Shown: one piece after another, positions 8,907 through 11,188 of the stretch
Layout of the letters: every line of letters starts with the position of its first letter
How positions within the stretch are numbered: position 1 is the first letter of the stretch
Assembly: GCA_017467335.1 (NCBI GenBank)
Contig: JAFTSJ010000009.1
Span: 852 to 64,851, forward strand
Length of the DNA: 64,000 nucleotides
Source of the DNA: Alphaproteobacteria bacterium
GTDB lineage: Bacteria > Pseudomonadota > Alphaproteobacteria > CAAHEQ01 > UBA3637
Reading direction: 5' to 3'
The notes under the pieces: generated by a model
Seen by the model: only the letters and a program-made list of their open reading frames with translations
Told to the model about the DNA's origin: nothing
Database searches by the model: none
Position numbers and translations under genes: made by a program

Positions 8907-8982
8907 GCCGATTTAGCTCAGTTGGTAGAGCAACGCATTCGTAATGCGTGGGCCGGGTGTTCGAATCACCCAATCGGCACCA
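8907..8982 (+). tRNA. tRNA-Thr (anticodon CGU), CCA encoded
   Basis: GCCGATT-TA-GCTCAGTTGGTAGAGC-A-ACGCA-TTCGTAA-TGCGT-GGGCC-GGGTGTTCGAATCACCC-AATCGGC-ACCA forms a perfect cloverleaf. Confidence 0.92.
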
Positions 8983-8986
8983 CTTA

Positions 8987-9018
8987 TCCCTTAAAGTTTT
9001 GTCTTTAAGGGATTTTTT
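8987..9018 (+). terminator. rho-independent terminator after tRNA-Thr
   Basis: TCCCTTAAAG-TTTTGT-CTTTAAGGGA followed by T6. Confidence 0.75.
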
Positions 9019-9114
9019 ATTGTTTGTTTTTCAATAATTTTACTTTCCCGTCACAGTTATACGTCACGTTGCCCGACAAAGATGTTTTACAAAGCCTATA
9101 ACCACATCCCCATC

Positions 9115-9173
9115 CTGCATTTCACCCAATTGGATTTAATAGAAAAATATGATTTTTTCCCAAGTGGTTTTAT
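9115..9173 (+). repeat. direct repeat copy 1 (att-like), contains a copy of the tRNA-Thr 3' end
   Basis: CTGCATTTCACCCAATTGGATTT...GATTTTTTCCCAAGTGGTTTTAT. TCACCCAATTGG (9122-9133) matches the tRNA 3' segment TCACCCAATCGG (8966-8977) at 11 of 12 positions. Confidence 0.7.
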
Positions 9174-9396
9174 AAAATTTTATTACCAATATTTCTTTTG
9201 AATGACGATTATCTTTTTTCAGATATTTAAATTGAAACCGTTATTTTGTCCGATAAAGATATAAAAGTTACCTAATATATAAGACTTTTATATTATTTTG
9301 CCTATTTTAATTTTTTTGACATATTATATTTTAACTTTATTTTATTGACCTTTTATGATACACTGATCTTCCAAAAATAATAAAGGAGAAATTGGT

Positions 9397-11067
9397 ATGG
9401 CGGAAAAGAGTGTTTTTGATCAAATCAAGAAACAGAACGGTGAAAGTTTCGCAAAGGCAATTCGTACATACGATAATGGTATTTTTGATATTCCCAACAT
9501 TGTCAATATTGTAAAATATGCAGGTCGAGAAGCTGAACCGCTTATGCAGTACCTAATTTCATTGAAAAAAATCAAAATAGAAGATGTTGAAGAAGTTAAG
9601 GATCCTTTTGAATTGTTGTCCGATGCCGGTTATGATGCCTATTATGCGACTAACCTTAATGAACAAAATCGGATTTCAAAATATTTTGAACCGAATGAAA
9701 TGCTATGTACGTTTCGTGACCCAAGCAGATTCCAAAGATATCATATTATCAATGCTGTTAAAAAAAATGTTTCGGAGATTAAAAGAGAAGATTTTAGAGG
9801 TAAAGAACAAAGAGAAGATGCTTATGGAACAAGTGTTATATCTATTCAGGTTGCAATGCAAGGAGGATTTATTTCAATCAAAAATAGATACAATCACTCT
9901 ATCTCGAATCCAGATAACACATTTAACAGTAATCCGGACAACATTATCAAAGGACTATCAAATTCTTTAAAAAAATATCTTCAAGTTGATTTTTCTTCTT
10001 CTAATGTTTCTCTTCCTAACAATTTTGTCAATATCAACAATCAAATTGTTCGATATCACATAGAAGAAAATAATGTTTATTTCGCCGATAGTTATTATGC
10101 TAAAGACGGAAACATTTTCCCATTAAATAAAGATAATGAATTGATGTTGGATACATGTATATTAAACATTAAAAATCGTACACTGTATGATCCAAGTTGT
10201 TGCCTGGAACCAATATCAATAGACAATATTCAAGAAAAAAGTGGTAGTTTTGTGAGTGTGTTAGCTCATGAATTAAAAGGCAAGAGTCTACAAATTGTAA
10301 AAAGCAAAGATGGCGGACACAGTGTTTTTGCAAATGGAAAAACAATTATCAGTGTGAAAAATGGAGAAATTACAGCCTTAAATCTGCCAAATACAACAAT
10401 AGTGGGTGATGATTTCTTGCGAAACAATAAAGCCTTACAAATCCTTAATGCACAGAACTTAACAATAGTGGGGAATAATTTCTTGTATCGCAATGAAAAC
10501 TTACAAATCCTTAATACACCGAACTTAATAAAGGTGGGGGATAATTTTTTGTGGTTCAACAAAATCTTACACACCCTTAATGCACAGAACTTAACAATAG
10601 TGGGGAATGATTTCTTGCATCACAATGAAACCTTACAAATCCTTAATACGCCAAACTTAACAAAGGTGGGGGATGGTTTCTTGTGGTTCAACAAAATCTT
10701 ACACACCCTTAATGCGCAGAACTTAACAATAGTGGGGAATGATTTCTTGCGGTGCAACAAAATGTTTAAAACCCTTGATATGCATAAGTTAACAACGGTG
10801 GGTTGTTGTTTCTTACAGAGCAACAAAATCTTACAAATCCTTAATGCACAGAACTTAACAACGGTTGGAGATTATTTCTTGTGGTTCAACGAAAACTTAC
10901 AAATCCTTAATACACCGAAGTTAAAACGGATAGGCAAAATATCTTCCACACTCAAAGCTCTTTTGCAGAAAGCTCAAACTAGAAATCCATCTAACAATAA
11001 AAAATTGAATATACATAAAAAAAACACTGTAACAATATCAGTTACTCGTAGAAAAAACACTCGATAA
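9397..11067 (+). CDS. leucine-rich repeat protein with unknown N-terminal domain
   Basis: 556 aa with an AAAGGAG RBS. The C-terminal half has about 8.5 tandem 22-aa units LxxLNxxNLxxVGxxFLxxNxx. The N-terminal ~325 aa has no motif I recognise. Confidence 0.85.
   Translation: MAEKSVFDQIKKQNGESFAKAIRTYDNGIFDIPNIVNIVKYAGREAEPLMQYLISLKKIKIEDVEEVKDPFELLSDAGYDAYYATNLNEQNRISKYFEPNEMLCTFRDPSRFQRYHIINAVKKNVSEIKREDFRGKEQREDAYGTSVISIQVAMQGGFISIKNRYNHSISNPDNTFNSNPDNIIKGLSNSLKKYLQVDFSSSNVSLPNNFVNINNQIVRYHIEENNVYFADSYYAKDGNIFPLNKDNELMLDTCILNIKNRTLYDPSCCLEPISIDNIQEKSGSFVSVLAHELKGKSLQIVKSKDGGHSVFANGKTIISVKNGEITALNLPNTTIVGDDFLRNNKALQILNAQNLTIVGNNFLYRNENLQILNTPNLIKVGDNFLWFNKILHTLNAQNLTIVGNDFLHHNETLQILNTPNLTKVGDGFLWFNKILHTLNAQNLTIVGNDFLRCNKMFKTLDMHKLTTVGCCFLQSNKILQILNAQNLTTVGDYFLWFNENLQILNTPKLKRIGKISSTLKALLQKAQTRNPSNNKKLNIHKKNTVTISVTRRKNTR
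10369..10935 (+). repeat. in-frame tandem repeat, 66-bp unit (132-bp super-unit), encoding the LRRs
   Basis: Near-identical blocks recur, for example CTTAATGCACAGAACTTAACAATAGTGGGGAAT at ~10444, ~10576, ~10708 and, with two substitutions, ~10840. Confidence 0.85.
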
Positions 11068-11077
11068 ACTTAAAAAT

Positions 11078-11188
11078 CTGCATTTCCCAAATAGATTTCA
11101 AAGACAATGATGACTTTTACCCGATTAATTGGATAAGATAATTGGCTTTTTACCCGTTTGGATTTGATTTTTTCCCAAGTGGTTTTAT
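11078..11188 (+). repeat. direct repeat copy 2 (expanded)
   Basis: It starts CTGCATTTCCCAAATAGATTT and ends with the same 23-mer GATTTTTTCCCAAGTGGTTTTAT (11166-11188, identical to 9151-9173). Internally it reiterates TTTACCCG..TTGGAT three times. Confidence 0.7.

Follow-up and report, generated by a model that had tools for sequence, protein, structure and literature searches.

A leucine-rich repeat gene between copies of an integrative-element arm motif behind tRNA-Thr(CGU) in an uncultured alphaproteobacterium

Genes and repeats behind tRNA-Thr(CGU)

In a 64-kb stretch of DNA from an uncultured alphaproteobacterium (contig JAFTSJ010000009.1; hereafter the window), which is AT-rich with a guanine-plus-cytosine (GC) content of ~33-37%, an intact tRNA-Thr(CGU) gene is followed by a gene for a leucine-rich repeat (LRR) protein, and this gene is flanked by copies of a short repeat. 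Here we describe this segment and the family of tRNA-linked integrative elements to which it appears to belong, using for comparison relatives' loci from Alphaproteobacteria metagenome-assembled genomes (MAGs), coded L001-L032. Two tyrosine recombinases recur in these loci and are named for use here: IntA, a 583-amino-acid (aa) integrase with DUF6538 and Phage_integrase domains, and IntB, a FimB/E-sized recombinase of 198 aa. Read from 5' to 3', the gene order is efp, suhB, a small open reading frame (ORF), tRNA-Thr(CGU), the LRR ORF, ORF165 and an M48/TPR protease gene, the core genes efp and suhB thus lying upstream of the tRNA. The features of the region are as follows.

8907-8982, plus strand: tRNA-Thr(CGU), intact, the chromosomal anchor of the element (ARAGORN; Rfam tRNA model, 72.9 bits)
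8986-9019, plus strand: terminator hairpin with T-run (terminator scan; anchored comparison of 21 loci)
9014-9090, plus strand: conserved arm module, TTTTTAtTG..TTTCCCGTCAC-AGTTA-yaCGTCAC and then TTGCCCGAyAAAGA, single copy in the window
9115-9173, plus strand: upstream unit with motifs 1 and 2, 34 bp apart; its last 23 bp are an exact repeat
9119-9139, plus strand: motif 1, variant CCCAATTGG
9153-9173, plus strand: motif 2, variant CCCAAGTGG
9174-9396, plus strand: 5' region of the putative cassette, with the LRR promoter TTAACT-17-TATGAT at 9331-9359 (alignment with L003 and L018; promoter scan)
9397-11067, plus strand: LRR gene, 556 aa, with a conserved N-domain of 330 aa and eight 22-aa repeats of the BspA/LRR_5 type
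11078-11165, plus strand: the putative cassette's own unit or units, with a CTGCATTTCCC-type left flank, found also after the LRR stop in L001/L002, L003, L018 and L022-L024
11083-11098 and 11117-11136, plus strand: degenerate motifs of the cassette unit
11147-11167, plus strand: strong extra motif (weight matrix)
11166-11188, plus strand: exact 23-bp repeat of 9151-9173, motif 2 variant
11257-11274, plus strand: terminator-like hairpin between the LRR units and ORF165 (terminator scan)
11299-11796, minus strand: ORF165, a near-orphan accessory gene between motif copies
11913-11933, plus strand: fifth copy of the motif, TTTTTAACCGAACGGATTTTA, directly adjoining the stop codon of the IntB remnant (weight-matrix score 21)
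11931-12017, minus strand: remnant of the IntB 3' end, ..DTVESLKI and stop (tblastn; DNA match to L001, L003 and L028)
12036-12070, plus strand: oppositely oriented remnant of the IntB 5' leader (local alignment score 43; shuffled sequences average 19.5 and reach at most 34)
12243-13538, minus strand: M48/TPR protease gene

A preliminary description of this DNA had reported a unit that is repeated just behind the LRR gene, and this was reproduced. The unit at 9115-9173 recurs 10 nt past the LRR stop codon in an expanded form (11078-11188), and both copies are closed by the same 23-mer, GATTTTTTCCCAAGTGGTTTTAT, which is exact at 9151-9173 and 11166-11188, is present in exactly two copies, and has no further match with up to three mismatches in the 64 kb (0.02 expected). 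The two 23-mers have the lineage-specific motif 2 variant CCCAAGTGG in common. The motif TTTnCCCrnnTGGnTTT is confined in the window to two clusters, the upstream unit and the post-LRR unit, and an ungapped weight matrix built from 34 motif instances places copies in the window at starts 9119, 9153, 11147, 11168 and 11913. The second unit had also been described as expanded by reiteration; the expanded form was found, and of the four downstream reiterations visible by eye the ungapped matrix passes two (11147-11167 and 11168-11188), those at 11083 and 11117 being degenerate or carrying a 3-nt insertion. A degenerate copy claimed at ~12146 scores -22 to -50 by the same matrix, and the real extra copy is that at 11913-11933. 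The LRR gene and ORF165 both sit between copies of the repeat.

The LRR protein matches MBQ9089651.1 ('MAG: hypothetical protein IJY58_01225') at 100% identity, and its repeat corresponds to 66 nt of the ORF in 8 copies. The N-domain (residues 1-330; 9397-10386) is kept by more than 2,400 homologues, with K11, K12, G15, E16, R139, D141, Y143, the K-N-R-Y-N-H run at 162-167 and D173 invariant. The AlphaFold2 (AF2) models are confident, with a predicted local distance difference test score of 87.9 for the protein and 89.9 for the N-domain. The protein resembles BspA/LRR_5 proteins in its 22-aa repeat and in the Foldseek matches, which involve the C-terminal half alone, to BspA-like LRR surface proteins of gut bacteria (Eubacterium, Faecalibacterium and Bacteroides) and to TpLRR; by contrast, the 330-aa N-domain has no Pfam family and found no fold match in the PDB (best Foldseek E 0.38). 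A sequence search of the PDB returned SDS22-type LRR similarity only. The window's protein falls below Pfam significance and its homologues carry PF13306; no obvious N-terminal signal peptide was seen by eye.

A family of tRNA-linked elements with a common arm

The sequence behind tRNA-Thr(CGU) has counterparts behind other tRNA genes. A scan with the exact module pattern TTTCCCGTCAC-AGTTA-CmCGTCAC, using one genome per species, returned 18 loci in ~15 MAGs from ruminant and other animal guts, with 1-2 copies per genome. The module, which contains two copies of CCCGTCAC, is always on the tRNA strand and 63-64 nt past the CCA end of a tRNA gene or of a tRNA 3' remnant; the targets are Thr-GGU, Ala-GGC, Ser-UGA, Leu-CAA and Asp-GUC, and with Thr-CGU in the window they amount to six tRNA species. 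In every locus the unit starts 75 nt after the module start and holds two motifs 34 bp apart, and the arm as a whole has a mean identity of 85% across loci, with the two motifs at fixed positions. The window conforms to this layout: its module repeats, C(C)CGTCAC at 9046-9067, lie at a spacing from the tRNA identical to that of 20 other loci and include two CGTCAC direct repeats (9049-9054 and 9062-9067) that are 13 bp apart, and the position and motif spacing of its upstream unit are the same as in all other loci, with CCCAATTGG and CCCAAGTGG being the most divergent variants of the arm alignment. The arm begins 4 nt past the CCA end of tRNA-Thr(CGU). Hairpins behind the tRNAs are similar and constantly spaced in the anchored comparison. 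The hairpin that follows tRNA-Thr(CGU) is close to the tRNA-Thr(GGU) hairpins of other genomes in sequence and in spacing, which argues that the sequence from the tRNA end onwards is element-derived and that the terminator hairpin at 8986-9019 is probably part of it.

Behind the unit, many loci carry a DUF6626 gene, IntA and two small conserved ORFs, all transcribed towards the tRNA; DUF6626 and IntA stand next to the unit in L008, L011, L014, L020 and L021. The genes upstream of each tRNA are conserved chromosomal ones, and on this ground carriage of the tRNA by the element was rejected; the downstream side is variable. IntA has ~100 close homologues, all of them in Alphaproteobacteria MAGs and mostly on short contigs, which fits a mobile element present in repeated copies. 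Among themselves, the Leu-associated integrases share 98-99% identity, and with a Ser-associated one they share 76%. At tRNA-Leu(UAA) of L031, where a 54%-identical integrase is found, three copies of TGTAACACC (12820-12880, minus strand) replace the two copies of CCCGTCAC, which fits arm-type binding sites that co-evolve with the integrase; no repeat marking the distal end of this distant element was found within 12 kb. The window has a tRNA-Leu(UAA) gene of its own (932-1020, minus strand) with no IntA-type element behind it. The module pattern had no match in viral contigs, and a scan of metagenome contigs with the IntA alignment gave one irrelevant locus at 25% identity. Searches of PHROGs and NCBIfam returned nothing informative for DUF6626 and the neighbouring element genes, and a full-text literature search for DUF6538 found no paper.

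Judged from this conservation, 8983-9173 appears to be the tRNA-proximal arm of an IntA-type element from which the integrase has been deleted. The preliminary description had proposed that an integrase was lost, and this agrees with the comparison, as intact relatives have a tyrosine integrase at that place and no trace of it is left in the window. The arm showed no significant Rfam match, single-stranded DNA or RNA structure, or covariation (single-stranded folding z-scores -0.58 and +0.09); the sites are accordingly read as double-stranded DNA, to which proteins most likely bind. For lack of structure, an attC-like hairpin was rejected. The strict motif occurs 42 times in 417 kb of loci sequence against 0.05 in shuffles; its orientation is the same throughout, and every copy lies in an arm, behind an LRR gene or beside IntB. 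With few copies, each of them tied to an island, it is not a common repeat scattered through intergenic regions genome-wide. Tn7-like ends were also considered and rejected, as the motif copies are all direct, none is inverted, and there is no transposase.

The preliminary description had interpreted the repeats as attL/attR scars holding a copy of the tRNA-Thr 3' end. The similarity behind that proposal was reproduced: TCACCCAATTGG at 9122-9133, 140 bp downstream of the tRNA, agrees with the tRNA segment 8966-8977 at 11 of 12 positions; with ~0.28 chance matches expected in the window, its closeness to the tRNA looks non-random. However, the matching segment is motif 1 of the unit, and the unit is also kept behind five other tRNA species whose 3' ends bear no relation to it; motif 1 reads CCCGAACGG or CCCGTTCGG in all other loci regardless of the tRNA. 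Because motif 1 is the same whatever the tRNA, and CCCAATTGG is a local variant of it, the likeness to the tRNA-Thr 3' end would be coincidental. Moreover, the downstream copy, CCCAAATAG, has three mismatches in the 9-mer, and no longer tRNA fragment is present anywhere in the window: neither the last 14 nt of the tRNA (up to two mismatches) nor its last 23 nt (up to three mismatches) has a second match in the 64 kb. We consider scars of this kind highly improbable. The repeats appear instead to be element-internal sites on the arm that are repeated at cassette boundaries, rather than attL/attR with a tRNA core. The general idea of a decayed integration at tRNA-Thr with loss of the integrase is supported, while its mechanistic detail is wrong.

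Some variation within the family was noted. The spacers between the motifs, GATAGAAAAATATGA, GTCGGACATTGATGA, GTAAGATTTTGATGA and ATCAGACATTTTTACC (alignment A5, arms of 15 loci, columns 125-140), do not track tRNA species, which suggests that the arms are mosaic and that recombination has occurred among elements at different tRNAs. A sequence of ~95 nt, TCAATTCCAACATCTGCTCATCTrTGGCTACCGCC...GTGTTTCATTGCTTTACGCAGAAAAACAGTTCCCCAAACTGTTTTTCCTTGCGCAG, interrupts the module immediately behind CGTCAC in five of six loci with a tRNA remnant (L003, 9652-9747; the same module position in L006, L012, L018 and L019). The sixth such locus, L010, has a related sequence directly ahead of its tRNA-Asp remnant (~300-400, oriented), and the end of the ~95-nt sequence also interrupts DUF6626 in L018 (oriented, from 4160); it resembles one end of a different mobile element, or a miniature inverted-repeat transposable element. 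Other cargo between the unit and DUF6626 includes a HEPN/AbiU2-like gene and a MORN-like repeat protein, among others. Cargo of the HEPN/MORN type lies at or near an inverted repeat, TTAAGACAT..ATGTCTTAA, in L021 (oriented, 6160-7150) and at the same position in L005, L007, L013 and L015; a second slot for cargo may exist at this site. In L028 (409-3070), a 68%-identical IntA, DUF6626, two motif copies, a module-like CCCGTCAA and a tRNA-Leu 3' remnant, with IntA, DUF6626, the motif copies and the remnant all on the plus strand, are followed by a terminator; the integrase is thus at the remnant (attR-like) side and not beside an intact tRNA.

Occupied and empty sites and candidate recombinases

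The junctions of the LRR segment were examined by comparing occupied with empty loci. In L018, a tRNA-Leu remnant is followed by the module, the unit, the LRR cassette, a second unit, the normal right flank GGATTTTCTCCGAACTTTAAGACATTGAACG and DUF6626, and L008, L011 and L014 represent empty counterparts. The left copy in L018 is resident sequence up to CCCGATTGGATTTT, where the cassette begins, while in the right copy another left flank, AATCTGCATTTCCCG, and a separate spacer precede the shared TGCCCGATTGGATTTT, after which the resident flank resumes. The same occupied/empty pattern was seen for L003 compared with L009 and L020. This arrangement of the copies points to an exchange that took place at motif 2, between two sites that are similar without being identical. 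The LRR gene is the only gene in segment 9174-11165 (1992 bp) of the window, in which genes for recombination or transfer are lacking. The arm motif borders the segment on both sides in exact 23-bp repeats; the one at 11166-11188 is a putative crossover or core copy closing the 1992-bp segment, the corresponding copies of L018 sharing TGCCCGATTGGATTTT.

Relatives' gene order, which the preliminary description had suggested comparing, shows LRR orthologues in four different genomic contexts. The orthologues of L001/L002 and L003 have 85% and 74% identity, respectively, and in each of them a unit, CTGCATTTCCCGAACGGATTTG..TTTTCCCGATTGG, comes right after the LRR stop. A cassette-type unit follows the LRR stop in all four contexts, and the TTAACT-17-TATGAT promoter travels with the gene in every one of them. 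Distant members of the LRR family lie among housekeeping genes without any unit.

We regard it as probable that 8983-12070 is the decayed tRNA-proximal part of an IntA-family element, to which an LRR cassette was joined at motif 2 of the unit by a recombinase acting in trans. An intact element would run from the tRNA through the hairpin, a ~50-bp module with two copies of CCCGTCAC and a ~55-bp unit with two TTTnCCCGnnnGGATTT motifs to DUF6626 and IntA, the module and unit serving as double-stranded protein-binding sites of its attachment arm. From the element of the window, DUF6626 and the integrase gene would have been lost by deletion. The LRR gene would have arrived as an integrase-less cassette of ~2 kb, with its own promoter, its ORF and its own copy of the unit; conservative site-specific recombination at motif 2 would have linked this cassette to the arm and left the motif at both cassette ends, here as the 23-bp perfect repeat. 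ORF165 would represent a second, later insertion between motif copies. The recombinase would have acted in trans, with IntA as the more likely candidate and IntB as the alternative. The role of the motifs as recombinase sites, the acting enzyme and the order of events are what we infer from the observed conservation, tRNA linkage, integrase in intact relatives, occupied-versus-empty junction and repeat architecture.

ORF165 had no match in Pfam, NCBIfam or PHROG, has 7 representatives among 1.84 billion proteins, and is absent from the corresponding place in L001 and L022-L024; it is a possible second cassette.

That the flanking units might be the P' and P arm sites of one larger IntA element, with the LRR gene as its last cargo and no cassette insertion at all, raises the possibility of an internal deletion combined with a distal rearrangement. 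In lambda-type attP, arm sites flank the core on both sides. In L001/L002, the units behind tRNA-Leu and after the LRR gene bracket a 6.4-kb island that starts with DUF6626, as such an element would. However, L003 and L018, whose tRNA remnants differ, have the same left junction CCCGATTGGtTTTT|CAACCACAACC.., and the window has it in part, which independent deletions would not be expected to reproduce. In addition, the right copy in L018 runs straight into the resident flank and DUF6626, with no core or module between them. We consider this single-element explanation unlikely.

The motifs could alternatively be transcription-factor operators for the LRR gene and its neighbours, unrelated to recombination; they are short direct repeats upstream of a conserved promoter, and they lack secondary structure. 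By contrast, most units lie between the tRNA terminator and the 3' end of a convergent gene, where there is no promoter, and motif copies are also present downstream of the LRR stop. The strict link to integrase-bearing elements and the position of the occupied-versus-empty junction at the motif also speak against operators, and we hold this alternative to be quite improbable.

Full-length IntB is present in L003 and L028; it matches Pfam Phage_integrase (2.5e-19) and, over its full length and under the model cut-off, the NCBIfam FimB/E-type invertase model. Fragments of IntB were found in L001, L010, L022-L024 and the window, those of L001 being three in number and in both orientations (4550-4780, minus strand; 6519-6656, plus strand; 11753-11842, minus strand). 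The presence of both orientations within single islands suggests repeated inversion or deletion with breakpoints in or beside the gene.

Given that LRR cassettes are beside IntB in three of four contexts and never beside an intact IntA, IntB is a serious alternative as the mover: the architecture would be the same, with the motifs as IntB sites at which IntB inserts, deletes or inverts cassettes, and the IntA arm would merely carry them. IntB or its remnants adjoin the LRR unit in the window (11931-12070), in L001/L002 and in L022-L024, and lie 740 bp upstream of the unit in L003. The junction at 11913-11933, where a motif abuts the IntB stop codon, is also present in L001 and L023/L024, and a motif follows IntB in L003 and L010. 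The fragments in both orientations in L001 and the window are as recombination scars would be, and the full-length invertase-type match points in the same direction. However, the two-motif unit is found in all 21 arms, most of them in loci without IntB, and L018 has the cassette with no IntB within 7.6 kb. Furthermore, all motif copies are direct, which leaves an invertase role without support. A leading part for IntB is thus possible, though we would not expect it. As a separate observation, the island region of L003 that holds the LRR cassette also has a type I restriction-modification locus (1-5700), in which hsdS fragments, several in number and pointing both ways, surround a 268-aa tyrosine recombinase, the layout typical of a phase-variable hsdS shufflon.

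Several observations weigh against the joining of an LRR cassette to an IntA-type arm as proposed above. The upstream unit of the window has a cassette-type left flank, CTGCATTTC, that a simple one-step model does not predict. Among the loci compared, no empty or orthologous tRNA-Thr(CGU) locus was found, so the insertion is deduced from other tRNA sites. LRR cassettes are never beside an intact IntA, and three of their four contexts are beside IntB or its remnants. No classical attR, that is a distal repeat of a tRNA fragment, was found in the 64-kb window, and tblastn with IntA and DUF6626 gave chance-level matches only, with no remnant of either. No intact element was traced to its distal end, and the location of the L028 integrase on the other side of the motifs indicates that the family architecture is not uniform.

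The age of the events must also be taken into account. The LRR N-domain is 86.6-87.8% identical among the four contexts, compared with 92% for EF-P, 77% for SuhB and 83% for M48. The changed contexts fit the transfer of the LRR gene proposed in the preliminary description, but the divergence of the N-domain (87% identity) equals that of core genes, with no sign of recent transfer. GC is 0.329 for both the LRR gene and ORF165, compared with 0.371 +/- 0.025 for 42 window genes (-1.7 SD, standard deviations), and by codon-usage distance the LRR gene and ORF165 rank 6th and 5th, respectively, of these 42. The core-gene-like LRR divergence and a GC deviation of just -1.7 SD mean that the events are old, and nothing shows present-day mobility, which again counts against the proposed reading.

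The M48 protease gene had been expected to be the native neighbour of the tRNA in relatives. This was not the case, as the 3' flank of M48 differs in every genome examined: synteny based on M48 shows a conserved MlaD/DUF2155 side and a 3' side that differs in each genome, is without a tRNA and provides no empty site. The gene beside M48 in L032 does not encode an LRR protein. The M48 junction thus appears to be a synteny breakpoint rather than a native boundary of the tRNA locus.

Relation to known systems and minor observations

The elements resemble tRNA-targeting islands with tyrosine integrases, of the P4 type and related (Williams 2002, as cited in bioRxiv 10.1101/2020.12.28.424599), in lying immediately 3' of an intact tRNA, in the integrase being the first or second gene in relatives, in variable cargo and in the existence of integrase-less remnants. 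They differ in that the window has neither an integrase nor a distal tRNA 3' repeat, in that the cargo is bracketed by element-internal arm motifs, and in that the family integrase is unusually long (583 aa) with a DUF6538 N-terminus. Tycheposons of Prochlorococcus, whose integrases are partitioned by tRNA target and which show tandem integrations and partial tRNAs (bioRxiv 10.1101/2020.12.28.424599), offer a conceptual parallel. Both systems use several tRNA targets (Ser-tga, Ala-ggc and Thr-ggt in both), have tandem integrations separated by partial tRNAs, and have degenerate integrases and cargo beside the tRNA. By contrast, phylum and habitat differ, and replication hallmark genes were not seen here; a highly conserved arm of ~150 bp shared across all tRNA targets and cassettes bracketed by arm motifs were not found in the passages of the tycheposon description that were consulted.

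Another likeness is to cis-mobilizable elements (CIMEs) and to accretion at the attachment sites of integrative and conjugative or integrative and mobilizable elements (ICE/IME; PMC5704250). The LRR segment is similarly integrase-less, has attachment-type flanks, lies beside the site of an integrative element and could presumably be moved only in trans; unlike a CIME, its flank is a motif inside the element's arm and not an attB/tRNA core, and it is a single-gene cassette.

Integrons provide a looser comparison, in having single-gene units, each with a following recombination-type site, beside a tyrosine-recombinase platform and at a fixed insertion site. However, the sites are not hairpin attC (z-scores -0.6 and +0.1) and have no conserved pairing, the LRR cassette has its own promoter, and neither IntA nor IntB is IntI: IntA matches only XerC/D-type models, weakly, and IntB matches integron-integrase models at 1e-5 and 5e-3 over 40 residues, far below the cut-offs. 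A further possibility, which we put forward tentatively and with more doubt than credence, is that the unit is a dedicated attI-like double-stranded cassette-capture site, at which single-gene cassettes with their own units are exchanged by a tyrosine recombinase in trans; the LRR gene, ORF165 and HEPN-like and other genes elsewhere would be the candidate cassettes. If so, this would be a new way of assembling accessory-gene arrays, integron-like yet mechanistically distinct, behind many tRNA genes.

What the comparison brings out is a family of integrative elements that target tRNA genes in uncultured Alphaproteobacteria of the gut and that appears not to have been described before, with one near-identical arm of ~150 bp common to at least six tRNA targets. 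The module with two copies of CCCGTCAC and the two motifs offers a sequence signature by which islands and their cargo can be found in MAGs, and members of the large LRR family (more than 2,400 homologues) may be relocated as small cassettes. The window itself represents ordinary biology, the old and decayed end of an island.

Two genes elsewhere in the window were also noted. The small ORF between suhB and tRNA-Thr(CGU), ORF75 (75 aa, 8501-8728, plus strand), is without a family match, and its assignment as ribosomal protein L31 was rejected; L31 holds the corresponding place in L001. A permuted, two-piece transfer-messenger RNA gene, as is usual for Alphaproteobacteria, lies at 35376-35699 on the minus strand and encodes the tag ANDNFAPVAMAA.

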